Positions 4,642 to 32,630 of a DNA stretch of 32,630 nt are shown piece by piece; positions within the stretch are counted from its first letter, which is position 1, and the number at the start of each line of letters is the position of its first letter. The position numbers and the translations under genes were made by a program. Origin of the DNA: a virus (Duplodnaviria; Caudoviricetes); the IMG/VR virus record IMGVR_UViG_3300020045_007716, positions 1 to 32,630 of that record. One strand, written 5' to 3'. The notes under the pieces were generated by a model, which saw nothing but the letters and a program-made list of their open reading frames with translations, was not told where the DNA came from and ran no database searches.

Positions 4642-5586
4642 TTAATAAACGGCGGAGGCCGTGCCGGACGCAACAGCCCTATCGTATGGAGTCAACTTAG
4701 CGGTTAATTGCTGCCGAATATCCGCCTGTTGCCGTAGATTTTCTTGCTGCTGCTGGCCCAGTTTCAATTGCTCAGAGCGTCTTGACTCATTTAGACTAGT
4801 CAGGTCTTGGTAACCTTGTGCCCTTAATTGGTCTGCCCCTATCTTAGCTTCCATAATATCTTTATTAACGCCAATCAACCCGCCACGTGCCGATATGACT
4901 TGTCCTTGTAATGCACCTTTTTGACCTACTAATCCCGCATATTGTCCAGTAGCTTGCTGTTTTGCTTGAATATCCTGATTATATTGGTTGCGCCAATCTT
5001 TGTATGCCGTATTAGCCGCATTGGTTAATCCAGCAGCGGTGGCCAGATTCAATTGTCGATCAGCGCCCTTGTTGGCGTAAGGGTTTAGCCCCTGACTCGC
5101 CATGTCACGAATCTGTTTTTCGCGGGCTTGTCCATATTGAGCGGCAGCGTTACCCATATATTCTTCACGGGTGCGAGTGGCATTAGGATCAATATTGATT
5201 CCATCGGTGAACAGGCTTTTAGATTCGTCCAATAGCGACCCGTACTCACCAATATACTTTTCCATATTGCCAATGTCACCGGTCAGCGCCTTCAATATCG
5301 GCTCTGCCTTGTCGCCAAAGTCCTTGGCATATTTACCATAACCGTCATAAATGCTTTTTAACGTGCTGACATACCCAGCCGTGGTAGCGTCATGACCCGC
5401 CATAAGGGCATCGAAAGCTTGAGCAGCCTTTCTTGCTGGAGACCTTTCTCCTGTGTCCGCTTCTTTTACATACTGATACGGCCTTTTGAAATCAGCGCCG
5501 CCAAAATAACTTATGTTCTTTACAGTACCTACGCCTGTTGCCAATTCAGGGCCATTGCTAAAATCGAAGTAATTTGAATAAGCCAT
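4642..5586 (-). CDS. Putative internal virion/DNA ejection (pilot-like) protein
   Basis: 314 aa, A/Q/G-rich and helical; lies downstream of the tail genes. Confidence 0.55.
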   Translation of the reverse strand: MAYSNYFDFSNGPELATGVGTVKNISYFGGADFKRPYQYVKEADTGERSPARKAAQAFDALMAGHDATTAGYVSTLKSIYDGYGKYAKDFGDKAEPILKALTGDIGNMEKYIGEYGSLLDESKSLFTDGINIDPNATRTREEYMGNAAAQYGQAREKQIRDMASQGLNPYANKGADRQLNLATAAGLTNAANTAYKDWRNQYNQDIQAKQQATGQYAGLVGQKGALQGQVISARGGLIGVNKDIMEAKIGADQLRAQGYQDLTSLNESRRSEQLKLGQQQQENLRQQADIRQQLTAKLTPYDRAVASGTASAVY

Positions 5587-19973: not shown

Positions 19974-20477
19974 TCAAGCTAATGGAATTATTTCTATACG
20001 GGTCAGTTTTTGGCTATCCTGGTCTGCTGCGCCATTGGCATTGTCATTGATTCCAAGATTACGGCGACGCAGGTTAATGATTTTTTCCGATATATCAACT
20101 ATGTTTTTAACGATCCTTGCTTTCTCACCCGTTGATTCCTCGCACATTAAAAACTCTTTGTTAAGCATATCCCTCATACCAACAAGGACTTGTATTTCCT
20201 TTGATTCTTGCTCTAAACATTCAGACTGTTTCTGCGCTATGGTAAGTATTAGTTCCGCTTCGTTAAGTTTGGTAAGTAATGTTAAGTTCTTGGCATTATA
20301 TAATTCCGTCGTTTTCTGCTTGATCTTTTCCGACAAATCCCTTGTCCATTCAAACTTATCCGCCCTTTGCTTTATAGCAACATGCGATATGCCATAAATA
20401 TCCGCCATTTCCCTAAGGGTTTTTGCCCCTATCCTGTAATCCCTTTCAACTGCCTCCCAATCAACTTTCTTAGCCAT
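19974..20477 (-). CDS. terS: Terminase small subunit
   Basis: HTH DWEAVERDYR.G..TLREMA..YGISH.AI..RA....W, immediately upstream of terL. Confidence 0.85.
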   Translation of the reverse strand: MAKKVDWEAVERDYRIGAKTLREMADIYGISHVAIKQRADKFEWTRDLSEKIKQKTTELYNAKNLTLLTKLNEAELILTIAQKQSECLEQESKEIQVLVGMRDMLNKEFLMCEESTGEKARIVKNIVDISEKIINLRRRNLGINDNANGAADQDSQKLTRIEIIPLA

Positions 20478-20640
20478 ACTTGTATTCCTTCTTTAATTCC
20501 CGATCCTGAAATAATGCGATAAAATCCAAATCTACATCATCCACAATAATATAAAAATGTTTAATTAAACAAACATCATTATACACAAAAATCAATATAT
20601 TTTCTTATCACCCGCAATCATTGCACCGTTATTCCAATGC

Positions 20641-20856
20641 TGTCAATATTTTTTACAAACGTAACTTACTGATTATATTGATAACTAACTATCTCATGCA
20701 ACATATAGTATACATGCGCTTAATATAACACAAGAATACTGTCAGGATTTTTTACAACTATAAGTTATTGATATTTCGTTTGTTTGTTTTTTACCTACTA
20801 CATATAGTATCCATGTAGCCGATCACATACTAGCGAGGTGTCAGGATTCTTTACAA
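20641..20856. repeat. Degenerate 99-bp-period tandem repeat (about 2.2 units)
   Basis: TGTCAR(T/G)ATTYTTTACAA at 20641, 20740 and 20839; ACATATAGTAT(A/C)CATG at 20701 and 20800. Confidence 0.85.
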
Positions 20857-20929
20857 TTTATGGCATTTAACCTGCCACGAAATGACAGATATTTTTTATC
20901 TTATTGATTTATATATTTTTATAATTAGT

Positions 20930-20945
20930 TGGCATTAGTAATGCA
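20930..20945 (+). promoter_or_regulatory. Sigma54-type -24/-12 promoter candidate
   Basis: TGGCATTAGTAATGCA has GG-N10-GC spacing; IHF-like TATCTTATTGATT about 30 bp upstream. Confidence 0.6.
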
Positions 20946-20987
20946 ATATACTAAGTGAAAGCAACTTTTAACTACACGGAGACGAAA

Positions 20988-21197
20988 ATGAACGACTATT
21001 CGGGATTAGAAACTTCTAACGAAATAATTTTAGCACTTGAGGAGCGGTATTCAGGCAAAGCATGCGATGAAGGCTCTGAATCCAATTGCGAATGGGCTGA
21101 TCCTAGCGACATGTCTGGAATTATTGCGCGGGCATGGGATCTTGCCGAACCTGAAACAAATAAACTGTTTTGGGGGGTGGAGTCATTCGAGAAATGA
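20988..21197 (+). CDS. Hypothetical acidic early protein
   Basis: GGAG RBS before MNDYSG. Confidence 0.6.
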   Translation: MNDYSGLETSNEIILALEERYSGKACDEGSESNCEWADPSDMSGIIARAWDLAEPETNKLFWGVESFEK

Positions 21198-21406
21198 AAC
21201 CAAAACTGTACGAAACAAAAATCAATGACGTCGGCCTAGTCATTCAATACAGCATGGATGCGGATGAATACGGGCCATTTTGTAACCTGATTAAAATTAC
21301 TGCAAATGATTCTGAAATCGACATTATGGATATATTAGACGATTTCGTTAAAATTGAAATCGAGGGGGCAATCGAGAAACAAGAAAAAACATGGAGGATA
21401 AAATGA
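21194..21406 (+). CDS. Hypothetical protein
   Basis: MKPKLYET..., ATGA-coupled. Confidence 0.6.
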   Translation: MKPKLYETKINDVGLVIQYSMDADEYGPFCNLIKITANDSEIDIMDILDDFVKIEIEGAIEKQEKTWRIK

Positions 21407-21549
21407 GATATTCAATAATCGCATATAAAGCTGTCAACGGATTAATTATAAAAGTCTGGTCAGCGGCCAATCTGACAGAAAAAGATATGCTCGAACTGAC
21501 TACCGGATCACCCTATATGATAGTAGTTGAGACAATGCTACACATATAG
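21403..21549 (+). CDS. Hypothetical protein (48 aa)
   Basis: GGAGG RBS, ATGA overlap; absent from the ORF track. Confidence 0.5.
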   Translation: MRYSIIAYKAVNGLIIKVWSAANLTEKDMLELTTGSPYMIVVETMLHI

Positions 21550-21578
21550 ATATTATAACACATTTGGAGTTAATAAAA

Positions 21579-21748
21579 TGAACCAAATCTATTTTTCAGC
21601 GCACCAGGTCGAAAAAGCCCGCCGTGCTACATTGGCCGCTCAAGAGTCTGAAATCGCCGCGTATGAACGCCGTGGCGCGTGGTATTTAGTCGGGATGGTT
21701 TTTGTTTCGGCTGTTATAACGATTACATTGATTGGATTTTTTAGTTAA
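21579..21748 (+). CDS. Small membrane protein
   Basis: GGAG RBS, MNQIYF..., C-terminal transmembrane helix; start coordinate approximate. Confidence 0.55.
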
Positions 21749-21760
21749 ACACCGTTGCCG

Positions 21761-21896
21761 GCGCGGTCATGTGTGCCGGATGCAGCCCAGCGGATTATGG
21801 CGGCATCATAGTAAAAATAACCGCGCACCATTGGCCGGGACATCCTGGATTAGTGCTCCAGGCATTCATAAATGAGCCTCCGACCCGGCGCAATGG
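21761..21896 (+). ncRNA. Candidate structured RNA
   Basis: GC-rich intergenic stretch with nested stems GCGCGGT/ACCGCGC, CCATTG-GCCGGG/CCCGGC-CAATGG and CCTGGA/TCCAGG. Confidence 0.35.
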
Positions 21897-21927
21897 AACC
21901 TATTTTACTATTTATCGAGGTAACAAA

Positions 21928-22062
21928 ATGAACGATGAAACAGAATGCTGCCTATGCGGCGAAACAATTGAAAATGGCAGTTATTGCGAGGATTGCCGGG
22001 ATTCTGGAGACCTGGAAGATATTTTGGAGGAATTATTCGGCACGGAATGCTTAGCCAATTAA
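21928..22062 (+). CDS. Small Zn-finger protein
   Basis: GAGG RBS, MNDETECCLCG..YCEDC. Confidence 0.55.
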   Translation: MNDETECCLCGETIENGSYCEDCRDSGDLEDILEELFGTECLAN

Positions 22063-22072
22063 GGGGGATTAA

Positions 22073-22504
22073 ATGCTAATATCAATGCGACAATTTGCAC
22101 GCATGGCCGGTATTAACCGGTACAGATTAGAGGTGATCTATGATATGCGACTGGTAGAGGGATTGCCGGATAGATTCAAAGGGGACTGGCGAGGATACAA
22201 AGTTTTTGATGACCTCGCCCAAGAATTTCTTGCAAAAAATGATCTCAAAACAGTTCGAACCACTTTTTACAAAAAACGCAATCCGAAGCCGAAAAAATCC
22301 AAATATACACCCAGTATGCTATTTTTGGCGTCTATGGTAGATCGAACATATCAACCAAAACCACACGAGCCAGTAACACCCTATCGAGAAACGCTCGAGG
22401 AGCTACACACAGAATATAATTCCGTGGTCAACACGGTAGATGGGTTTTCAACGTATAGCGGCGAATTTAAGGCTCCACCAACGCAAACTTTTAATTACTC
22501 ATGA
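22073..22504 (+). CDS. Hypothetical protein, possible N-terminal HTH
   Basis: LISMRQFARMAGINR. Confidence 0.6.
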   Translation: MLISMRQFARMAGINRYRLEVIYDMRLVEGLPDRFKGDWRGYKVFDDLAQEFLAKNDLKTVRTTFYKKRNPKPKKSKYTPSMLFLASMVDRTYQPKPHEPVTPYRETLEELHTEYNSVVNTVDGFSTYSGEFKAPPTQTFNYS

Positions 22505-22662
22505 AATCGGCATTAGTACGTGACGCGGAATGGTTGATAGAAAATGGCCTGAATAATATTGATCCGGCTAGGTTTTGCGACTGGGTGACCAGGCTGTGGC
22601 ATGACGGAATGTCGGAAAATGAGGCAAGGCTTTTTGTTTTGGAGGAAATGGTCAATGAGTAA
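22501..22662 (+). CDS. Hypothetical protein (53 aa)
   Basis: MKSALVRDAEW...; ATGA-coupled; absent from the ORF track. Confidence 0.55.
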   Translation: MKSALVRDAEWLIENGLNNIDPARFCDWVTRLWHDGMSENEARLFVLEEMVNE

Positions 22663-23068
22663 GAATTTAACAATGTGTAATAACAGTACATTAGACGCGA
22701 TGGTGACGGCATTATCTGTTTTGAGTAAAATATATTCGTCATCATCAGTCGATGATTATGGCAATGTAGTCATTGGTGTGAATTCGTATCCGGATTTTTT
22801 AAAAAAAATTGTGGTGGAGATGGAGAAGCTAAAGAGAATCATTGCGTCTTCGTTGCTAACCGGGCGCGGCCCTGCGAATGAACAAAACTCTCCCGCTGTT
22901 GCGGGTCCGGTTGAGCGCCGGGTTAGGCGTGAATTAACCGCAGAGCAGATATTAAAAGCCATCTACGCTTATGGATATACTGCCGACGACATAGTAAATA
23001 TTGGGATGGATGTCATCGTCGATATAACAACAGCAGTAGAACAAGCGCATGGAATATCAGGCGCCTAA
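22655..23068 (+). CDS. Hypothetical fusion protein that reads through an eroded attC-like site
   Basis: GGAGG RBS before MSKNLT; internal LTGRG...GPVERRVRR is encoded by site A; stop codon lies in site B. Confidence 0.6.
   Translation: MSKNLTMCNNSTLDAMVTALSVLSKIYSSSSVDDYGNVVIGVNSYPDFLKKIVVEMEKLKRIIASSLLTGRGPANEQNSPAVAGPVERRVRRELTAEQILKAIYAYGYTADDIVNIGMDVIVDITTAVEQAHGISGA
22855..22928 (-). repeat. attC-like site A (left core box lost)
   Basis: GCT-AACCGG...T-CCGGTT-G-AGC-GCCGG-GTTAGGC. Confidence 0.75.
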
Positions 23069-23149
23069 CGCAAAGCTAACCGGGCGCACTAATGACGACA
23101 ATTAAACAATACGCCGCTTCCAGCGCTCCGGTTGAGCGACAGGTTGTGC
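23063..23149 (-). repeat. attC-like site B
   Basis: GCCTAAC-N5-GCT-AACCGG-GCGC...GCGC-T-CCGGTT-G-AGC-N5-GTTGTGC. Confidence 0.85.
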
Positions 23150-23313
23150 GTGAACTTAAGCCATGCCCTTTTTGCGGCGGGCAAGCAAGGCTTTTTACTG
23201 ATGGTCTAACCACAATTATTTGTAAGGATTGCAATATGACAGTTAGCAACTTTGAGCGGTCAATAATAAAACTTACTGACCAGTGGAATAGACGAATTAG
23301 CCATGACGCATAA
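23092..23313 (+). CDS. Lar-family restriction alleviation protein (cassette B-C)
   Basis: ELKPCPFCGG...C.DC...WNRR signature. Confidence 0.8.
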   Translation: MTTIKQYAASSAPVERQVVRELKPCPFCGGQARLFTDGLTTIICKDCNMTVSNFERSIIKLTDQWNRRISHDA

Positions 23314-23393
23314 CGCAAAATTAACGCGCGCCCAGTTGGACGTTGAACGAAACCGCGATGCTGAAGGGCGTCGCGTTGAATGACGGGTTAGCC
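23308..23393 (-). repeat. attC-like site C
   Basis: GCATAAC-N5-ATT-AACGCG-CGCCC...GGGCG-T-CGCGTT-G-AAT-N5-GTTAGCC. Confidence 0.88.
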
Positions 23394-23425
23394 GTTTTAG
23401 CACTAAAAATATTTTGATTTAAGTA

Positions 23426-23453
23426 TTGACTTTAATCTAATTAGGTATATACT
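23426..23453 (+). promoter_or_regulatory. Sigma70 promoter inside cassette C-D
   Basis: TTGACT-N16-TATACT with CTAATTAG palindrome in the spacer. Confidence 0.6.
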
Positions 23454-23502
23454 ATATTCAGCGTTAAGGGATTGGCTCTTAACAATAATTGAGGATAGTA
23501 AA

Positions 23503-23820
23503 ATGAAAGCAATAAAAGTAACTTTAATACAAGATGCTTACTTAGATGATGATGGAGATTACACTGCATTAGCAATATTAAGTAAAAATGAAATTGATAA
23601 TACTGATGACGAAGAGTCAGGTTATCCGGTTAATTATGCAAAAGTGCGGTGGAATACAGTTGATGGATTTGATGGTGAAGACGAAAGCAACGCTTGTGAT
23701 TGGTCAAATCCAGAAGGCGTTAAATTTAACGGGCAATGGATAGCTGATAAATTTGAAGGTGTTAATAATTTTAAAAATATGAAATTTGAATACTTTAACA
23801 CTGACGGAAGTCGGCTTTAA
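23503..23820 (+). CDS. Acidic hypothetical protein (cassette C-D)
   Basis: GAGG RBS, 105 aa, DESNACDW motif. Confidence 0.7.
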   Translation: MKAIKVTLIQDAYLDDDGDYTALAILSKNEIDNTDDEESGYPVNYAKVRWNTVDGFDGEDESNACDWSNPEGVKFNGQWIADKFEGVNNFKNMKFEYFNTDGSRL

Positions 23821-24011
23821 TGTCAGGAGGAAAAAGGGAAGGAGCTGGCAGGAAGCCAGCTCACCCGCTTTTAAAAAAGGAAATGATAAGCCTGAAATTA
23901 CCGCGATGGTTAATTGATAGGCTTGACGAAGAACCGGAAAGCAGAGCAGTGATAATTGAAGCGGCTTTGGGCGAAAAACATGGCTGGACACCTCCGGATG
24001 TAGGCGGCTAA
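23820..24011 (+). CDS. Ribbon-helix-helix/CopG-like DNA-binding protein (cassette C-D)
   Basis: GGKREGAGRKP followed by ISLKLPRWLIDRL..SRAVIIEAAL; stop codon in site D. Confidence 0.7.
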   Translation: MSGGKREGAGRKPAHPLLKKEMISLKLPRWLIDRLDEEPESRAVIIEAALGEKHGWTPPDVGG

Positions 24012-24089
24012 CGCCTAATTAAGGCGGCGCACTTTGATTTTTAACAACACGGTGAGCTTGAAGCGCTCGCCTTGAATTAACTGTTAGGC
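24006..24089 (-). repeat. attC-like site D
   Basis: GGCTAAC-N5-ATT-AAGGCG-GCGC...GCGC-T-CGCCTT-G-AAT-N5-GTTAGGC. Confidence 0.88.
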
Positions 24090-24101
24090 ATTGGAGATAA
24101 C

Positions 24102-24404
24102 ATGAGCGGAAGAATACTAACATGCGTTTATTGCGGCCACGAATATCCGCAGGACACCCCGGCGCACGGCAGCGAAGTGCTGACCGAGCACATAAAGATT
24201 TGCGAGCGTCACCCAATGCGCAAAGCCGATGCCGATATTACTCTGCTGCGCTCTGCGCTGTCCGGATTGATCGGTGCGGACACCGAAGCCGAATTGAGGC
24301 AAATGGAAGCCGCGATGCGCCTGCTGCCAGCGCCGGATGCAGACAAGGCGGTTTCCATCAACGCGATTCATGCGCTGCTGGCGACTATGCCGCCTAACGC
24401 TTAG
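24102..24404 (+). CDS. Zn-binding hypothetical protein (cassette D-E)
   Basis: GGAG RBS; CVYC...H...C..HP; visibly GC-richer than its neighbours; ends PPNA* across site E. Confidence 0.75.
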   Translation: MSGRILTCVYCGHEYPQDTPAHGSEVLTEHIKICERHPMRKADADITLLRSALSGLIGADTEAELRQMEAAMRLLPAPDADKAVSINAIHALLATMPPNA

Positions 24405-24428
24405 ATATACACCCAATAGGTGTATAAC
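24392..24428 (-). other. Terminal site E of array 1 (attI-like or degenerate attC)
   Basis: GCCTAAC-N5 followed by short palindrome TATACACC-CAATA-GGTGTATA; no right GTT box. Confidence 0.5.
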
Positions 24429-24458
24429 AAATTATTATGTTTTTTGTACTGGATCAAA

Positions 24459-24683
24459 ATGAATGAAATAGTCACTTGCGGCCAATGCCGTCATTTTATC
24501 CGGCCTGAACCCAGATTCGAACCGAACAGCATGGGCGCTTGTAGTCTTTATGACGACTGGAAAGCCAAATGGGGCGGTAAAACTATCCCCATTCAGGCCG
24601 ATAATCGGGTTAATGCTGAGCTGGGGAACAAGATGTTTTTTACGGATATTGAGCGGTATTGTAAAAAATTTGTTGCAAAATAA
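24459..24683 (+). CDS. Cys-containing hypothetical protein
   Basis: MNEIVTCGQCRHF...GAC...RYC..F. Confidence 0.65.
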   Translation: MNEIVTCGQCRHFIRPEPRFEPNSMGACSLYDDWKAKWGGKTIPIQADNRVNAELGNKMFFTDIERYCKKFVAK

Positions 24684-24708
24684 AAAAATGCTATATAATA
24701 AAATCATT

Positions 24709-24799
24709 CCGGGCTGGTAACCTGGAGTGCCTGTGGGAGTTGATAGAGAGTATCAACAGTTTTTTAGGTCTCACGGGCCCCTAAAAGACTACCAAGCCC
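24709..24799 (+). ncRNA. Candidate small structured RNA
   Basis: Nested stems GGGCTGGTA/TACCAAGCCC, GCCTGTGGGA/TCTCACGGGC and GTTGATA/TATCAAC; TATAAT upstream and terminator downstream. Confidence 0.4.
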
Positions 24800-24820
24800 A
24801 TAGTACACAATCAAATTACT

Positions 24821-24859
24821 AAAAAGGCTTGGTTATCGAAAGATTCCAGGCCTTTTTTT
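24821..24859 (+). terminator. Intrinsic terminator, possibly bidirectional
   Basis: AAAAAGGCTTGG...CCAGGCCTTTTTTT. Confidence 0.7.
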
Positions 24860-25301
24860 ATGCCTTAAATTCTTCAATTCAGACTTGGAAATTTTAAAAT
24901 AAAAAACTCAGCAAACTTCAGGGGTAACCGGGTTCGGTGCTGGGTGATAGCCGGGAAGAATGAGCAAGCCCGGGGCGTTGGGGAAAAGGGTGAAAATATT
25001 TTACTGAGTATCATGAAAATTCTGGCCGCCCCCTTAATTGTAGGGTCGGAACACACAGAAAAGATGTTTGTAGTGGATAGTAAAAAAGATTACACCTAGG
25101 CTAGAACGCGCTTGGACTCCGAACATGGGGGGTTTAAGTCTGGCCAGTATGAGCGTAACCATTATCAGCGACTCATGCCTTGTGATATGACGACTAAAGT
25201 CCTATTGCCTGTATTTCCGAGGTGGAAAGCTACAATAATATTGTGCTTCCGCCTTGGGATAAATTTGCTTGCTCAAATCTAACACAGAACCTTTGCCTAT
25301 C

Positions 25302-25499
25302 ATGAAAAGAAGCTATCAAGTCATAGAAAAACCAAGAACATTCAAGAAAAAAAACAGGGTTTGGTTGACAGTCCCATACGAAGAAAAAGACATTGTCAAA
25401 AGTTTAGGTGCAAAATGGGACTCAAAAAAGAAAAAATGGTATGCAGGCGACATGCAAACAGAGAAACAAGTTCAGAAATGGATCCCATATCAACCATAA
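25302..25499 (+). CDS. DUF5710-like domain protein
   Basis: WLTVPYEEKD.VK.LGAKWD..KKKWY. Confidence 0.75.
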   Translation: MKRSYQVIEKPRTFKKKNRVWLTVPYEEKDIVKSLGAKWDSKKKKWYAGDMQTEKQVQKWIPYQP

Positions 25500-25504
25500 A
25501 TTAT

Positions 25505-25657
25505 ATGATCCCACAACCAAACACACCCGCCCACAAAGCTTATCAGAAAGGGATTGAGGCTAAAAAACAAGGACTGCCAGAAAAAGCAAACCCATACATA
25601 CTCGGAAAAGTAGCTGCGTTGTCTTGTTGGTGGCTATTAGGATATAAATCATGCTAA
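25505..25657 (+). CDS. Rmf/CrpP-fold small protein
   Basis: AYQKG.EA...G......NPY........W.LGY pattern, as in the ribosome modulation factor fold. Confidence 0.6.
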   Translation: MIPQPNTPAHKAYQKGIEAKKQGLPEKANPYILGKVAALSCWWLLGYKSC

Positions 25658-27126
25658 CACTTAGGCCCTATCAAACTGAATCAATCCAGGCACTACGCGA
25701 AGGGATCAAAGCCGGCCACCGCTGCCAGATTCTATGCGCCGCTACCGGATCAGGAAAATCGGTAGTCGCTACGGAACTTTTACGGTGCGCTGGACAGAAA
25801 GACAAGAAATGCCTTTTCATAGTTGACCGCCGAGTTTTAGTCAGTCAATTTTCCGGACACCTGCAAAACTACCGTATCCCGCACGGCATAATCATGAAAG
25901 GCCATGGCAGGACAAAAGACAATATTCAGGTTGCTTCAGCTCAGACCATGGAAAAAATGGACTCCTGGCCGGCCTTTGACCTGATTATAATTGACGAAAT
26001 CCACGCTTGTTTTCGTAAAAGCATAAAAAAACTGATAGAAATGAATTCGGAATCTTCAGTGCTTGGACTCACCGCAACCCCACTGACTAAAGGGTTGGGC
26101 AATGTCTTTTCTAACGTAGTCAACGTCATAACAATGCGTGAGCTGGTCGATCAAGGATTTCTGGTTCCATTCAAGGTTTTTGTAGCGCATGAGATTGACA
26201 CGGCAGGCCTTGAGACGGCCACCACTGGAGAATACAAACCGGATCAACTGGAAGAGAGGGCAAAATTGATCGTTGGGGACGTGGTTCGTGATTACCTTAA
26301 ACTTTCACAGGAGCAAAACACCGGCAAAACCATTTGTTTTAGTTCTGGAGTTGAGCATGGCGTTGAGTTGGCAATGGAGTTTGCTAACCACGGCAAAAAC
26401 TTTGTATCCATATCGTACCGGGATGACGAAGATTACAAAAAAGAAGTTCTGGACGAATTTGCAAAACCGGATTCGAGTCTGCACGGCGTCATATCGACCG
26501 ACATTTTAACCCGTGGTTTTGATCAAACCGACATTGATCATGTCATTTTAGCCCGGCCACTGAAAAAAAGCCTTGCACTTCATATCCAAATGATCGGAAG
26601 GGGCGCACGTTCCCACACAGGGAAAACCCACTGTATCATTCAAGACCATAGCGGAAATTACCTGTTATTCAAGTACAGATTCGACGAAATCTACAACAAC
26701 GGCATTCACAAACTGCATGACGGCATGGAAAAGCCGCCTTCTATACCAAGTGAAAAAGAGAAAAAAGAGTCTTCATGCCCGTCTTGCGGCTTGATTTGGT
26801 CGAAAGGCTCGACGCTTTGTCCTAATTGCGGCTTTGTCTTTGTCAAAAAATCAAACGTAGTGCAGTTACATGGCGTTATGACCGAGTTAAATGGGACGGT
26901 TGAAAAAGCGGCGGTAGAAAAATATTCATCCCAGTACAAAGAGAAATTTTATCAACAGTTACTTGGTTACGCGCGGCAACACCGATATGCGGATGGCTGG
27001 GCCTACCACCAGTACATAAAGAAATTTTCAATCGCTCCCCCCTGGAAAAAACTTCCTTTAGAACCTGGAATTAACGTAATTAACTACGTTAAAAGCCGCC
27101 AAATAGCTTACGCAAAAAGAAAATGA
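25651..27126 (+). CDS. SF2 DEAH helicase (RadD/YejH-like) with C-terminal Zn finger
   Basis: LRPYQ, ATGSGKS, DEIH, GLTATP, LTRGFD, QMIGRG.R, CPSC..CPNC. Confidence 0.92.
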   Translation: MLTLRPYQTESIQALREGIKAGHRCQILCAATGSGKSVVATELLRCAGQKDKKCLFIVDRRVLVSQFSGHLQNYRIPHGIIMKGHGRTKDNIQVASAQTMEKMDSWPAFDLIIIDEIHACFRKSIKKLIEMNSESSVLGLTATPLTKGLGNVFSNVVNVITMRELVDQGFLVPFKVFVAHEIDTAGLETATTGEYKPDQLEERAKLIVGDVVRDYLKLSQEQNTGKTICFSSGVEHGVELAMEFANHGKNFVSISYRDDEDYKKEVLDEFAKPDSSLHGVISTDILTRGFDQTDIDHVILARPLKKSLALHIQMIGRGARSHTGKTHCIIQDHSGNYLLFKYRFDEIYNNGIHKLHDGMEKPPSIPSEKEKKESSCPSCGLIWSKGSTLCPNCGFVFVKKSNVVQLHGVMTELNGTVEKAAVEKYSSQYKEKFYQQLLGYARQHRYADGWAYHQYIKKFSIAPPWKKLPLEPGINVINYVKSRQIAYAKRK

Positions 27127-27578
27127 CTACTCTATTCTTAAGAAAAATCCACAACGTTTTTATCCCAGCCGACGCAATAACGCAGGCTGAAATGGAAACT
27201 ATGCACGATTGCGAATATAAAGCGGAAGTGACAAAACCGCGCAATTATTCATTCCTCAAAAAATTCTTTGCTCTAGTGAAAGTGGCGTTCGATGCGTGGG
27301 AAGGGCCGATAACAGAATATAAGGGTATGCCCGTAGAAAAGAATCTGGAGCGATTCAGGAAGGATCTATTGATTATGGCTGGGTATGGGTACCCTGTTGT
27401 AAATATCGCCGGGAAAGTCGAATTTGAGGCCAAATCGATAGCATTCGGAAGCATGGACGAAACAGAATTTGGTGAATTGTACAGTAAAGTGATTGACGTG
27501 ATTTTATCCAATGTGTTGAATCACTACACAAGAGACGATTTAGATTCGATGGTCAACAATATATTGAGGTTTAGCTAA
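27123..27578 (+). CDS. DUF1367-family protein
   Basis: PRNY.F.KKFFAL...AFD.W, FRK.L.I.AG, KSIAF.SMDE.EF..LY. Confidence 0.8.
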   Translation: MTTLFLRKIHNVFIPADAITQAEMETMHDCEYKAEVTKPRNYSFLKKFFALVKVAFDAWEGPITEYKGMPVEKNLERFRKDLLIMAGYGYPVVNIAGKVEFEAKSIAFGSMDETEFGELYSKVIDVILSNVLNHYTRDDLDSMVNNILRFS

Positions 27579-27763
27579 TGAAATATGCAGTGATGGTTAA
27601 AAAGTCCAGGCAAAAACACATATGCACCCCAGGTGAAATATGGGTAAAGGACAAAGATTCAATTTACTACGTCAACATAGACGAGCGCGGCGTATGGGAT
27701 ACCATAGAGGAAGCAGAGCAGGCAAAATTATATGACGATGAAATAGTGTTTGAGGTTAGCTAA
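27578..27763 (+). CDS. Hypothetical protein flanked by direct repeats
   Basis: 61 aa, TAATG-coupled at both ends. Confidence 0.6.
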   Translation: MKYAVMVKKSRQKHICTPGEIWVKDKDSIYYVNIDERGVWDTIEEAEQAKLYDDEIVFEVS

Positions 27764-27936
27764 TGAATATATTACGAAAAAATATGACCCTGATTGAATA
27801 TTTGCGTGCCTACAATCAATGGAGAAGGGGTAAAAATTGTATAAATTTCCACCCTAAAGAAGTTTGCCTTGTTATCGACGAAGTTATAGAAATCTTGGAG
27901 TCTCAAGATGCAAAAAAGAAAACCATATCGGAATAA
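27763..27936 (+). CDS. Hypothetical protein (57 aa)
   Basis: LRAYNQWRRG...PKEV..VID; TAATG-coupled; absent from the ORF track. Confidence 0.55.
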   Translation: MNILRKNMTLIEYLRAYNQWRRGKNCINFHPKEVCLVIDEVIEILESQDAKKKTISE

Positions 27937-28216
27937 AAAAATTCTGGATCATGCCAAAGGGCAGGAATGTCAAATCAGGCTCCCAGGTTGCCTACACAAT
28001 ACCGAAACAACAGTGGCCGCGCATATACATGCCTATGAATTCGGGCATGGTATGGGGCAAAAAGCGGACGATTACGCGATTGCCTATGTTTGCCACAATT
28101 GCCATTTAATATTAGACGGTTGGCATGATTTTGATATTGACTGGGTGGAGGGGATGTTTCACCTGGCCAATACCCGAACAATTGGGATTTTGTTCAGGGA
28201 CGGCATTATAAAATGA
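27908..28216 (+). CDS. DUF1364/YbcO-like putative nuclease
   Basis: AKGQECQIRLPG..H..ETTV.AH...GMGQK.DD.....C..CH..LDG. Confidence 0.85.
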   Translation: MQKRKPYRNKKILDHAKGQECQIRLPGCLHNTETTVAAHIHAYEFGHGMGQKADDYAIAYVCHNCHLILDGWHDFDIDWVEGMFHLANTRTIGILFRDGIIK

Positions 28217-28878
28217 GGTTTGACCAAACCGACGAAATGACACGGCGCATACAGCGCGAATTAAAACAAATAGAACAGGACAAGGAGGGCGAAAAAAAAC
28301 AGGATGACGCAATAAAAAGGGCATGGACGATCATTGCAAACGCCACCAGACAGCATCACGCCTATCTCGAATACAAAGGGTTTCCGGATCAAATCTGGAT
28401 CGTACACGAAAACAAACTTGTTGTGCCCATGTACCGTCCTACCCTTGACGGTAAGGGGAAATATTTAACAGGGCTCCAATTAATAGACGAATGGGGTGGA
28501 AAGAAATTTCTCTATGGCCAGAAAACAACGGGCGCTTATTACCGCATAGGATATGGACCTATCAATATTTTATGCGAAGGGCTGGCAACCGGACTCAGTA
28601 TTCGAAAAACGGCCGCTAGCGCAATCCAAGGGTTGTTTTCGATATGGATATGCTTTTCTGCTGCAAATATAAAAAATGTCGCTAAATATATCCATTCAGG
28701 TTTTGTAATGGCCGACCATGACGGATCAGGCGTAGGCGAAAAAGTAGCGCGGGATATTGGCTGGAATTATTGGTTATCCCCGAATGTAGGTGAAGATTTC
28801 AACGATTTTTGCCGTGGAGTGAGCCTATTTACCGCGTGTCAGGTAATTAAAAAAATGGCGATGAAGCACAAAATATAA
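28213..28878 (+). CDS. TOPRIM-domain primase-like protein
   Basis: H.YL..KG, LQLID..G.KKFL.G, CEG.ATGLSI, FSA.N, ADHD, DFND. Confidence 0.85.
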   Translation: MRFDQTDEMTRRIQRELKQIEQDKEGEKKQDDAIKRAWTIIANATRQHHAYLEYKGFPDQIWIVHENKLVVPMYRPTLDGKGKYLTGLQLIDEWGGKKFLYGQKTTGAYYRIGYGPINILCEGLATGLSIRKTAASAIQGLFSIWICFSAANIKNVAKYIHSGFVMADHDGSGVGEKVARDIGWNYWLSPNVGEDFNDFCRGVSLFTACQVIKKMAMKHKI

Positions 28879-28886
28879 AATACCGC

Positions 28887-28915
28887 TTGACATTGGTATA
28901 AATTTATAATACTAT
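28887..28915 (+). promoter_or_regulatory. Sigma70 promoter with palindromic operator
   Basis: TTGACA-N17-TACTAT; spacer holds the perfect palindrome TATAAATTTATA (28897-28908). Confidence 0.7.
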
Positions 28916-28943
28916 AGACACACGATATTAAACAGGAGGGGAA

Positions 28944-29102
28944 ATGGTTGAGTTCACAGACGAAGAAATGAAGATGCTTAACACCATATTTTGTGAAAAC
29001 TATGTCTATGAAAACGTAGACTACCAAGACGAAAACTGTCCGTGGAGAGCACTTTACACAAAGGTAATGGAATATATACCGGAGTCGAAAGATGAAGAGT
29101 GA
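28944..29102 (+). CDS. Hypothetical protein (52 aa)
   Basis: AGGAGG RBS, MVEFTDEE...; absent from the ORF track. Confidence 0.6.
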   Translation: MVEFTDEEMKMLNTIFCENYVYENVDYQDENCPWRALYTKVMEYIPESKDEE

Positions 29103-29679
29103 AAGCATAGCCGAATTGGCTAAAGCACTAAGTAAGGCGCAAGGCGCTTTTGATCATGCAAAAAAGGACACTGATAATCCTTTTTTTAAAAGCAGGTATG
29201 CCGACCTTGCAAATGTTATTGATGCGGCAAAAAAACCGTTAGCAGATAACGGACTTGCGGTAAGCCAGATTATTGTTGCCGATGAAAATGGAAACGTCAA
29301 TTTGGAAACGCTGTTAATGCACGCGTCAGGGGAATGGATTAGTGGTACTTATCCGATTCGCCCCGTTAAAACTGATCCTCAATCCATGGGTTCAGCGATA
29401 ACTTACGCAAGACGCTATTCTTTTTCTGCCATTACCGGAATAGCGGCTGATGATGATGACGGCAATGAAGCCAGCAAGCCAAAACCTGATAGACAAAGAG
29501 TTGATAAGCCAATTGAGAAATCATATTGGCCACAAGATAAGTTCAACGAAAAAAAGGAAGAATGGAAAGTAAAAGTTCTGTCCGGCGAACGAACAGTTGA
29601 GCAATTATTGACTGTTATGCAAGTTCGCCATTTGTTTACTGAGTCACAAATCTTAGAAATTCAATCATGGGAACGATAA
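29092..29679 (+). CDS. erf: ERF-family single-strand annealing protein
   Basis: NPFFKSRYADL, L.H.SGEW, PQ..GSAITYARRY, G.A.DDDDGN. Confidence 0.92.
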   Translation: MKSESIAELAKALSKAQGAFDHAKKDTDNPFFKSRYADLANVIDAAKKPLADNGLAVSQIIVADENGNVNLETLLMHASGEWISGTYPIRPVKTDPQSMGSAITYARRYSFSAITGIAADDDDGNEASKPKPDRQRVDKPIEKSYWPQDKFNEKKEEWKVKVLSGERTVEQLLTVMQVRHLFTESQILEIQSWER

Positions 29680-30851
29680 CACAAGACCATAAGCTGATGG
29701 TATCGGCGTCGAATTGTCATAGGATAATGACGTGCCTGGATAAAGATTATCTTCCGCAAGGCGCTATATCATATATCAGTGACATGTTTAATCTGTCCGA
29801 TGATGATTTTGAAAATACATATATGTCGGCGGACATGAACAACGGTGTTGAAAAAGAGCCGGAAGCAATAGAAGAATTAGCGGCTCATTTGTGGCTTGAC
29901 ATAAAATTTACTGGACATGCCCAAAAAAGGCTTTACGCCGGGAAAGATTATTATGATTTTTTGTCCGCCCTGACTGATGGGATTATATCCTGTAGTGACG
30001 TAGCTTATACAGTCGAGGTTAAATGTTTAAACAGAGAAAATCATCAATCTGTTTGCGAAAATGTTAGGCGCGCAGACGATCTTAAAAAGTATGATTATCC
30101 AAAATATTGTCAAGTTCAAGCACAAATACTGTGCGCTGAAAATTCATTTAAGAAAAAAACGTTAGGTATCATTGCATTTTACAATGAAAATTGTAAAGAA
30201 CCGCTGCGAATTATATGGATTGACCCCGATCAAGAATGGCGAGATAGACTCCATTCCCGCCTAGGCTTAGCTAAAAAACTCTACCTGGAAATACAGGGCG
30301 AGCCACAAAAACAGGTAATCCCATTAGCGCCCGATAACGAAATTGCAATAACGCCGGATATAGTTAGCTTGCTTCTTGGTGATCCGAAGTTTTTAATGGA
30401 AATGGTTTATGAGCATTTTGGCGTATCGATAGTTGACGGTCATTATACTGGCGGCGATATAATTGATTGCAGTACCAAGAAAGGCCGCGACCAGGCTATC
30501 AAGTTACGATCCAAAATAACCAAGGTCAGGACTGGCGCTGTTTCAATATCAAAGAAGCTTGTAGAAGAGTATAAGCTCAAATGCAAACAGGAGTTGGAAT
30601 TCCGAAAAACGATTGAGGCCGACTGTAAAGCACTCAGTGATTATCTATGCCAAGCCCTGAACACATGGGAAGCTGAGCAAAAGAAAAATGTTGAAGTGAA
30701 AAAGAAAGAAATTGAAAAAGAAGTCAAAGCAGATAAGGATGGCGAAAAAATTATATGGGTACTTGACACCATAAAAAATATGTTCGAGGCCGGTAAAATT
30801 GGCATAGACGAGGCGTTAATGATGGCATATCAAGCAGGATTGGACACATGA
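29667..30851 (+). CDS. YqaJ/lambda-exonuclease-like protein with C-terminal coiled coil
   Basis: SAS...IM, G.E.EP.A, SA.TDG, VEVKC, Y.QVQ.Q; adjacent to erf. Confidence 0.75.
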   Translation: MGTITQDHKLMVSASNCHRIMTCLDKDYLPQGAISYISDMFNLSDDDFENTYMSADMNNGVEKEPEAIEELAAHLWLDIKFTGHAQKRLYAGKDYYDFLSALTDGIISCSDVAYTVEVKCLNRENHQSVCENVRRADDLKKYDYPKYCQVQAQILCAENSFKKKTLGIIAFYNENCKEPLRIIWIDPDQEWRDRLHSRLGLAKKLYLEIQGEPQKQVIPLAPDNEIAITPDIVSLLLGDPKFLMEMVYEHFGVSIVDGHYTGGDIIDCSTKKGRDQAIKLRSKITKVRTGAVSISKKLVEEYKLKCKQELEFRKTIEADCKALSDYLCQALNTWEAEQKKNVEVKKKEIEKEVKADKDGEKIIWVLDTIKNMFEAGKIGIDEALMMAYQAGLDT

Positions 30852-31003
30852 AAACAGACAAATCGAAATCTTTACACATAAACGAAAAAACCCATAATCG
30901 GCTAAAGCTGTACAGTATTCAAGCCGGTAAAACTATCGGTAAGTTGGTGGATGAATTTATCGTTTTTTGCCTTGATCAACTTGAGCTTGATAATAAAAAA
31001 TAA
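30848..31003 (+). CDS. Ribbon-helix-helix/Arc-like regulator (51 aa)
   Basis: KSLHINEKTHNRLKLYSIQAGKTIGKLVDEFI; absent from the ORF track. Confidence 0.6.
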   Translation: MKTDKSKSLHINEKTHNRLKLYSIQAGKTIGKLVDEFIVFCLDQLELDNKK

Positions 31004-31039
31004 AATTACGTCATGAACATTCTATGGATTTTGAAATTT

Positions 31040-31056
31040 AATGACGGGTTATACAA
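31040..31056 (-). repeat. Remnant right end of an attC-like site (F0)
   Basis: AAT-GACGG-GTTATACAA; complementary to TTGTATAAC at 31184-31192. Confidence 0.55.
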
Positions 31057-31191
31057 ATGGCTATTGATTTTAACGATTGGGAATACTACAAAAATACCCT
31101 AAAACCTGTTTTTGGGAACCGAAAAAACTGGTATAGATTTTGTATTATCATGCATAGATTGAGGATGAAAATAATGTTTGGTATTGTATAA
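31057..31191 (+). CDS. Hypothetical protein (44 aa, cassette F0-F)
   Basis: MAIDFNDWEYY...; TAA falls inside the left box of site F. Confidence 0.5.
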   Translation: MAIDFNDWEYYKNTLKPVFGNRKNWYRFCIIMHRLRMKIMFGIV

Positions 31192-31274
31192 CGCAGAGCT
31201 AACCGGGCGCGGCACGGAAAGCTGAGCAATGAATGAAGATTGTGGCCGCGCTCCGGTTGAGCGTAGGGTTATAC
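31186..31274 (-). repeat. attC-like site F
   Basis: GTATAAC-N5-GCT-AACCGG-GCGCGGC...GCCGCGC-T-CCGGTT-G-AGC-N5-GTTATAC. Confidence 0.88.
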
Positions 31275-31510
31275 AATATTTATGGGGAAACATAATGAAA
31301 ATTAAAAAAATTGAGAGTCAAAGCCGCCGCGATTTTTACGCAATTTACACATGTGAGCATTGCGGACATGAAGAACGCGGAAGCGGGTATGACGATGACC
31401 ATTTCCATAGGAATGTTATTCCAGCGATGAAATGTAAAAAGTGCAGCAAGACGGCTGCCGAAGATTACAGGCCGATAGGGACAAAGTATGCTGCGCATGA
31501 AGTTGTATAA
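31229..31510 (+). CDS. Zn-ribbon hypothetical protein (cassette F-G); alternative start at 31295
   Basis: RRDF.A.Y.CEHCG...GYDD..FH..VIP.MKC..C; stop codon in site G. Confidence 0.75.
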   Translation: MNEDCGRAPVERRVIQYLWGNIMKIKKIESQSRRDFYAIYTCEHCGHEERGSGYDDDHFHRNVIPAMKCKKCSKTAAEDYRPIGTKYAAHEVV

Positions 31511-31588
31511 CGCAAAAGTAAAGCGCCCGTGAACGAAGCCAAAAAATGCGCTAACGGTAAGCGGGTCGCGTTGACTGACGGGTTATGC
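31505..31588 (-). repeat. attC-like site G
   Basis: GTATAAC-N5-AGT-AAAGCG-CCCG...CGGG-T-CGCGTT-G-ACT-N5-GTTATGC. Confidence 0.82.
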
Positions 31589-31768
31589 TGCATAGAATTA
31601 ACAAAGCCAATGATCGACGCTTATAACGAGCAATTGGCTGAAATATTGGCTTTCCATGCCGCAAATTTCAACGTAAGAAAGGCAATTGACGAACAAATGA
31701 AAAAACTGGCTTTTGACGCTTACACCCAGGGTGTTTTAGATGGGCAAAAATTAGTGGTTAAAACATGA
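31529..31768 (+). CDS. Hypothetical protein (cassette G-H)
   Basis: GTG start inside site G; ATGA-coupled to the next ORF. Confidence 0.55.
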   Translation: MNEAKKCANGKRVALTDGLCCIELTKPMIDAYNEQLAEILAFHAANFNVRKAIDEQMKKLAFDAYTQGVLDGQKLVVKT

Positions 31769-31917
31769 CCGCGTTTTTTTGGTTTTTAATTGGGGTAAAT
31801 GTCGGTTATTTATTAACAGGCTTTAAATTCGTGCGAAATGCGAATGAAATACAAAGAATTGAGTTTTTCGGCAAACTTTACAAGGTTTTGCACGATAAAG
31901 ATTGGCATGGGACATAA
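31765..31917 (+). CDS. Small membrane protein (50 aa, cassette G-H)
   Basis: MTAFFWFLIGVNVGYLL...; TAA inside the left box of site H. Confidence 0.55.
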   Translation: MTAFFWFLIGVNVGYLLTGFKFVRNANEIQRIEFFGKLYKVLHDKDWHGT

Positions 31918-31980
31918 CGCTGGAGGTGAGGCGACTGGCGCGGCTTTATGCGACAGGTCGCCTCGACCGTAATGTTATGA
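31912..31980 (-). repeat. attC-like site H
   Basis: ACATAAC-N6-GGT-GAGGCG...T-CGCCTC-G-ACC-N5-GTTATGA. Confidence 0.8.
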
Positions 31981-32110
31981 ACGGAGGTTGATATGGAGCG
32001 GGTTTTTTTGGAGAACCCGCATGGCGTGCATGGGTACAGATTTTCCGCACTGGTTGTCGGGCGGCAACCAGTTGTATAGCACCTTACGTTGTTAGATTGT
32101 GGTTATACAG

Positions 32111-32248
32111 ATGATTGACACTCGGTTTTGCATGAGATGCAAGGGTAATTTTATATACGCATACAGCGGTATATTAAAAAAAATGGTTTGCTCTAACTGT
32201 CAGCGCGCCGCGTTGGATGCTGGTCGTAAATTGAGCAAAAACGATTGA
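32111..32248 (+). CDS. Small Zn-finger protein (45 aa)
   Basis: CMRC...CSNC; absent from the ORF track. Confidence 0.55.
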   Translation: MIDTRFCMRCKGNFIYAYSGILKKMVCSNCQRAALDAGRKLSKND

Positions 32249-32273
32249 TGTATAACAGGTAAAATTGTAAACA

Positions 32274-32630
32274 ATGACTATATTATCGATTGACCCAGGA
32301 ATAAAAACAGGAGCTGCCGTATTCGACAATGGGAAATGTATGTTTTTTAAAACATTGCGCGGGCCGATCTCGGCAATACATTTCATTAGATCGAATAACC
32401 CTGTTTTAGTCATATGCGAGGATAGCCGGCTTCAATCACATGTTTTTACGGCTCCAAAACTCAACGCACAGGCGAGACTTAAAGTAGCTCGGAATATAGG
32501 CATGGTTGATATGTGCTGTTACCTGATACAAGTAGAATGTGAGCGAATGCAAATAGATTACATGGCCGTATCACCAAAAGGCAAAGGGATAAAGCTTGAT
32601 GCCAAGGGTTTAACAAAATTAACCGGTATT
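32274..32630 (+). CDS. RuvC-like Holliday junction resolvase/RNase H-fold nuclease, 3'-truncated
   Basis: MTILSIDPGIKTGAAVF...VICED; open to the window end. Confidence 0.75.
   Translation, partial: MTILSIDPGIKTGAAVFDNGKCMFFKTLRGPISAIHFIRSNNPVLVICEDSRLQSHVFTAPKLNAQARLKVARNIGMVDMCCYLIQVECERMQIDYMAVSPKGKGIKLDAKGLTKLTGI

Follow-up and report, generated by a model that had tools for sequence, protein, structure and literature searches.

The stretch of viral DNA analyzed here (the window; 32,630 nt, which is the entire viral record, 47% complete according to CheckV) carries a row of three attC-type sites, F, G and H, interspersed with small genes, in which the extra G and the extra T of each site are carried by the gene-coding strand, opposite to the arrangement in bacterial cassettes. 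Spanning less than 800 nt on a contig with no integrase, this row (array 2) is by definition a phage CALIN of the kind described by Qi et al. (2023, PMC9892861) and, with no intI beside it, is not a complete integron. We place the probability at about 0.65 that its cassettes are shuffled mainly by the IntI recombinase of a Methylococcales host. The initial annotation had proposed that two loci of this phage draw on one pool of inverted cassettes and that chance or a single host-derived capture is improbable; overall, this interpretation is partly supported.

The minus strand of the window encodes the terminase, portal and major head protein, and the plus strand encodes helicase, NinB, HNH, primase-like, Erf and Holliday junction resolvase genes. 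Next to array 2 on its upstream side, profile searches (PHROG/Pfam) identified an Erf-like annealing protein and a gene with a YqaJ-like recombinase domain (29092..30851, plus strand), followed by a conserved 51-aa gene (30848..31003, plus strand) that forms the fixed left flank of the array. This 51-aa protein is 86% identical in G005, a complete genome and the closest relative found, and DNA likeness between the two phages stops at 31004. At the right end, before the resolvase gene, likeness to G005 restarts at the last TAAC box (32250–32256), which adjoins the conserved leader of the resolvase gene (32250..32273, plus strand) and carries no attI motif. The extent first assigned to array 2, from the half-site F0 to H, falls short at its right end: the array runs past 31980 through a decayed site (H2) and a 49-aa ORF to this box. 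An Rfam search of 20000–32630 returned a single chance match, scans for promoters (16 versus 11.2 expected by chance, sd 3.5) and terminators were both near chance, and none of the public RNA runs was listed as holding window sequence.

Sites F (31186..31274), G (31505..31588) and H (31912..31980), all on the plus strand, share one order of elements on the coding strand: an AAC box is separated by 5–6 unpaired nt from a first L box (7 nt), a stem and an extra T come next, and a second L box, whose 8 nt include an extra G, precedes 5 nt and a GTT box. The extra G is found at 31259, 31573 and 31965, respectively, and the extra T, further in, at 31252, 31566 and 31958. The R boxes with their AAC/GTT core pair within the site at 7/7 positions in F and at 6/7 in both G and H, the L boxes are paired in all three sites, with one mismatch in G, and the initially annotated arms GAGGCG/CGCCTC, GGT/ACC and AGT/ACT are all found. 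The array opens with F0 (31040..31054, plus strand), a right half-site recognized by sequence and consisting of an L-box end, a spacer and GTTATAC, and the same half-site opens array 2 of G005. Beyond H lies H2 (32071..32108, plus strand), whose right box GTTATAC is intact and which is probably the remnant of a site, recognized by sequence and outside the set scored by the covariance model. Across 73 aligned sites AAC and GTT are invariant, as follows from how the sites were selected, and compensatory changes are seen in 16/21 pairs, a partly circular test because L-box pairing was used to pick the sites.

These elements correspond to the attC features given in the available portion of Nivina et al. 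(2016, PMC5027507), namely the AAC triplet, R and L boxes, an extra G in the L box, an extra T, spacers of 5–6 nt and a length of 57–141 nt, within which all three sites fall. Their geometry is that of the recombinogenic bottom strand in the part of that study consulted here, and that of the aadA7 bottom-strand primer in the accessible supplement of PMC9892861. A strict rule (TAAC; 5–6 nt; 7-bp L box with extra G; 2 bp; extra T; stem; GTT) found six sites on the plus strand of the window (B, C, D, F, G and H) and none on the minus strand; it had no match in 200 dinucleotide shuffles, a null that is favourable because the rule was drawn up after the sites were seen. A covariance model whose training set includes these sites scored F, G and H at 83, 61 and 50 bits on the plus strand, and on the minus strand listed F at 28 bits and neither G nor H. 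Predicted DNA folding on the plus strand was pronounced for F (z = −5.3) and H (z = −4.9) and weakest for G (z = −1.7; 8/200 shuffles fold as well), and in each site the strand bearing the extra bases folds better (F −23.0 versus −18.3, G −14.7 versus −9.0, H −18.6 versus −15.3 kcal/mol). Taken together, sequence and predicted folding confirm F, G and H as attC-type hairpins, for which recombination by IntI is predicted, and bear out the claims that these sites, with the remnant F0, are attC-like, inverted in polarity and not products of chance.

The genes of array 2 fit closely between these sites, all on the plus strand. The genes of 44 aa (31057..31191) and 71 aa (31295..31510; phrog_14808, two CxxC motifs) stop at the TAA of F and G, respectively, and a 50-aa ORF (31765..31917) stops at the TAA of H, as had been claimed for three ORFs. 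The earlier account needs correcting for the G–H interval, which contains two ORFs, the other (31529..31768) measuring 52 aa if it starts at an ATG at 31610 and 79 aa if it starts at a GTG within site G. After H follow a 28-aa ORF (31993..32079), probably a fusion or truncation, and the ORF of the last cassette (32099..32248; 49 aa, or 45 aa from an ATG at 32111), with a box pairing of 8/8. Pairing of neighbouring boxes across the genes is 9/9 from F0 to F, 9/9 from F to G and 6/7 from G to H, in agreement with the earlier account. The 44-, 52- and 50-aa ORFs had no PHROG or Pfam family match, the 49-aa ORF had a weak FlhC match below the cut-off, and a PDB search with an AlphaFold model of the 71-aa protein (pLDDT 78) gave no fold match at E ≤ 0.001. 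A DNA search of GenBank phages returned only coding likeness to the 71-aa gene.

An ordinary cassette has its gene on the top strand and upstream of its attC; the array 2 genes lie instead on the strand of the extra bases, and each follows, on its downstream side, the site with which it moves. Among the 80 metagenome loci listed as matches to the 71-aa gene, it is a plain phage gene in most and a reversed cassette in several, and 16 of these 80 homologues end in TAAC. In three loci (L177, L179 and L197) it is the gene of a cassette of ordinary polarity, flanked by the very box pair that flanks it in the window. Rare top-strand recombination events are described in the accessible part of PMC5027507, and two such events could interconvert the ordinary and reversed forms.

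We examined polarity more widely using patterns derived from the window sites, which matched 34, 8 and 39 stretches in viral contigs (overlapping sets) and at least 126 in bacterial genomes. Of 120 distinct viral site-to-site spacers, a home-made, composition-based gene scorer called 88 reversed, 3 ordinary and 4 unclear, with 25 given no call; for 128 bacterial spacers among the matches listed, the figures were 22, 67, 10 and 29, and both sets consist of cassettes that are not independent and were collected with phage-derived patterns. The scorer, which uses an assumed amino-acid background, superseded a length-only rule that was noisy (13 versus 9 of 50). Of the genes in the 88 viral cassettes called reversed, 41 have the TAA of the following box as their stop codon, and the start of 19 lies within their own site. 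Several of the reversed bacterial cases resemble prophages or mis-binned phage contigs, the one examined being L116. Reversed polarity is, as judged by this census, a phage trait.

Comparison with relatives indicates that the cassettes move. G005, whose Erf is 93% identical, has the two flanks of array 2 in common with the window and three different genes in the slot between them, likeness being lost at 31004 and regained at the last AAC box; the third site of its array 2 is truncated. In one run (X1), a 352-nt contig is identical to window 31189–31513 (0 differences) and has 24 other nt before the TAAC, a flank shorter than the 31 nt that our rule for bridging a junction demands. The Erf-region contigs of this run are only ~90% alike to the window, and the source is thus a relative and not the same phage. 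Two runs of the same study (X3 and X4) hold the 71-aa gene followed by a different site interior, with 4 differences, and a run from another study (X6) holds site G and its downstream sequence behind 57 unlike nt. In three runs of a single study, contigs agree with the window through H and the first 15 nt of the 28-aa ORF and diverge after 32007. The junctions of the F–G and G–H units in these other samples lie at the left TAAC box, so that a gene and one site move as a unit cut at AAC, as seen for array 2 in short contigs; the cassette-precise variation that the earlier account predicted is thereby found.

Longer units are seen in two viral genomes showing no backbone in common with the window phage (G012 and G022), which carry two units identical between them (exact runs of 413 and 293 nt), arranged in opposite order and bounded by TAAC boxes; the upstream site is kept (identity 1.0) and the downstream site is not (0.42–0.70). 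Over 50 viral cassettes, box pairing across the gene averaged 5.22 of 7 positions versus 3.96 and 4.20 within sites and 3.70 (sd 0.14) after shuffling, an excess across the gene that is what a circular intermediate would select for. Contigs from public runs, an assembly product that drops rare forms, contained no circle joints.

The second locus, array 1 (22846..24089, plus strand), comprises sites A, B, C and D in the same polarity as array 2. Site F had been described as nearly identical in its arms to A and B, and the arm identities hold (against B, left arm 21/22 and right arm 17/20); A is a chimera of two site types joined inside the loop, with its left R box lost. This likeness is weak evidence for a pool internal to the genome, because F-type sites are widespread, occurring in many other phages and in one Methylobacter chromosomal integron. 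As to a single pool for the two loci, the gene between F0 and F does have a counterpart in array 1 of G005 (84% identical protein; 87.6% over 153 nt), which lends the proposal some substance; the counterpart sits behind a collapsed site and has no clean downstream site, which leaves its boundary unclean and, with the weak argument from the arms, the proposal in part unsupported. In array 1, a Lar-like gene (23063–23310) starts inside the loop of site B, so that the right arm of this site is translated, and an AT-rich, promoter-like stretch behind site C (23394–23505), resembling positions 1418–1476 of G005 L036, suggests a cassette with its own promoter.

Array 1 is closed by an attI-like site (about 24392..24446, plus strand; motif match 24395–24426). 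The attI pattern has this sole match in the window, hence none in array 2, and none in 100 shuffles, and G005 likeness restarts exactly at the TAAC of this site. It aligns with sites preceding intI in a Methylobacter (L094) and a Methylomicrobium (L124) integron. Across 151 genomes of the Methylobacter family, the motif has 17 matches in 12 genomes and none in a backwards control; intI lies 120–132 nt downstream of 7 of the 17 (5 whole, 2 partial), and 15 of the 17 adjoin an ordinary cassette gene. We read the motif as the probable attI of this family. Viral contigs hold 9 matches in 8 contigs, and the motif closes arrays in the window, in G005 (twice) and in a further viral genome (G026); the array genes face towards the attI end. 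One of the closed arrays of G005 (L007 1590–4615) is its third reversed array, longer than the first two and located behind the resolvase gene, a region before which the window stops, and holds a likely DNA methyltransferase cassette, as read from its sequence. Elsewhere the motif was seen directly before a phage integrase gene (L005 3618–3677) and tail to tail with another (L029 4381–4440).

The attI match points to a host among the Methylococcales, methane-oxidising bacteria, which we regard as likely. Among the Methylococcales integrons (L094 and L124), site F is matched at 83% over 78 nt; in L094, F-type sites accompany ordinary genes and one reversed cassette (5001–5313). In L124 (920–1868), the first cassettes, next to attI, are reversed, and one has a phage pyrophosphohydrolase match. 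The neighbours of both integrons look chromosomal, judging by their ORF translations. A search of the 151 family genomes with the capsid protein gave one distant match (30%) and identified no host prophage. These integrons resemble the window in site type, attI motif and the order of site strand, attI and intI; they differ in that most of their genes lie opposite the strand of the extra bases, whereas the phage genes are flipped, no intI was found and array 2 is without attI. The earlier contrast with a host-derived origin is misleading: no single capture is involved, but in site type and attI copy the phage resembles host integrons, from which the enzyme likely comes.

No match to PF00589 (tyrosine recombinase) and no resolvase-family recombinase was found in the window, at 47% completeness, or in the complete G005. 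Tyrosine recombinases occur in 10 of 35 array-bearing viral records, and a single one (G015; TIGR02249, 429 bits) passes the IntI cut-off; the nine others, considered as IntI candidates, fall below it and are read as ordinary phage integrases. In G015, a reversed array is followed directly by intI, which starts ~40 nt past the array's last AAC box. This genome (L018 1550–5617) looks like a temperate phage with a complete integron, all on one strand, in the order reversed array, intI, excisionase-like ORF and phage integrase.

According to the model we favour, array 2 is an integron-type cassette row within the replication and recombination gene cluster of the phage, and each cassette consists of an attC hairpin and the gene behind it, on the strand of the hairpin's extra bases. 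Host IntI would cut the folded coding strand at the left AAC, where both excision and insertion would take place, presumably through circular intermediates; it is this position of the cut that makes a site and the gene behind it the cassette. Since the layout of the DNA is the one found in ordinary integrons and the genes alone are flipped, they would be read with the phage operon and not from an attI promoter, transcription probably coming from a promoter of the phage at the array's far end. As array 2 has no attI, insertion would occur at an attC or at a secondary AAC; insertion at secondary attG sites (Loot et al. 2024, as cited in the portion of PMC12614218 consulted here) could explain anchoring at a plain AAC box such as that at 32250. 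Homologous recombination between similar arms may help array 2 gain cassettes, and probably contributes, given the lack of attI and the decay of the array. Other recombination also acts, as chimeric and half sites indicate: the site A chimera, F0, H2 and the truncated site of G005 are not products of recombination at AAC boxes.

How far such other processes could replace host IntI has to be weighed. If the hairpins derived from integron cassettes and array 2 were now shuffled mainly by homologous recombination between arms, through the Erf and YqaJ-like proteins, the adjoining genes for these proteins, the loop chimera at site A and the lack of attI would find an explanation, as would the F-type site that stands second in both the window and G005, with 29 identical nt in the left arm and no flanking gene in common. 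Recombination between arms would break sites apart, however, and the units shared between contexts retain their complete upstream site and stop at TAAC, with box pairing preserved across the genes; we judge this unlikely as the main process. That array 2 is a decaying relic, whose hairpins persist only as spacers or translation signals, is less likely still: it would accommodate the remnants F0 and H2, the probably fused ORF after H, the weak folding of G and the rarity of TAAC ends among the listed homologues of the usually plain 71-aa gene, but F and H are intact, the 9/9 box pairs are kept, and the identity of the F–G unit over 325 nt in another context points to recent movement. Least probable is an IntI-like recombinase of the phage's own, encoded in the missing part of the genome as in G015; the incompleteness of the window leaves room for it and G015 provides the precedent, yet the complete G005 has no tyrosine or resolvase-family recombinase, and G015 is alone among the 35 records. 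Shuffling by the IntI of the host thus remains our preferred explanation.

The available portion of Qi et al. (2023, PMC9892861) describes CALINs in phage genomes as attC clusters between small phage genes with no integrase nearby, features that array 2 shares, and reports that 5/6 of the phage CALIN sites tested were recombined by IntI1. The CALIN of phage TJE1, with site scores on the minus strand and genes on the plus strand, is of ordinary polarity, whereas the window array is reversed; that portion of the report mentions neither arrays with genes on the recombinogenic strand nor an attI copy in its virulent phages. In PMC5027507, as far as its consulted text goes, strand choice is presented as making genes face away from the attI promoter, and the window genes all face the opposite way. 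Our literature search, conducted in openly accessible literature at the level of titles and abstracts, returned no published account of reversed phage arrays. The idea that one published attC clade has its strands inverted finds no support in the consulted part of PMC8352920. New here are the array 2 cassette found unchanged in another context, the attI match of host type and the reversed cassettes in host integrons.

These observations suggest a broader model, which we put forward tentatively and at somewhat less than even odds. Phages of methanotrophs and other proteobacteria would share a pool of cassettes built in reverse, copying the host attI into their early operons and relying, while they infect, on host IntI to exchange small accessory genes with one another; reversed cassettes would be left behind in host integrons, and gene bodies would flip between the two forms by rare top-strand recombination. 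Integrons are known as bacterial gene stores and, judging by titles cited in PMC12614218, have recently come to be seen as anti-phage stores too. If the reversed pool is real, phages would rearrange their own small early genes with an enzyme of the host, phage mosaicism would have a site-specific source with predictable breakpoints, and some of the backwards-facing cassettes in host integrons would be explained. The claim is directly testable in the standard strand-delivery assay with a named host-type attI and IntI.

Two further observations were made in the course of this work. Contig L116, labelled as part of an Ohtaekwangia MAG, is phage-like, with NinB and terminase-region matches to the window as well as reversed arrays, and is possibly mis-binned. 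In the window, positions 5–156 and 2055–2191 contain two long inverted repeats (72–75 nt, 76–78%), which lie within coding DNA on opposite strands and probably represent related protein segments.
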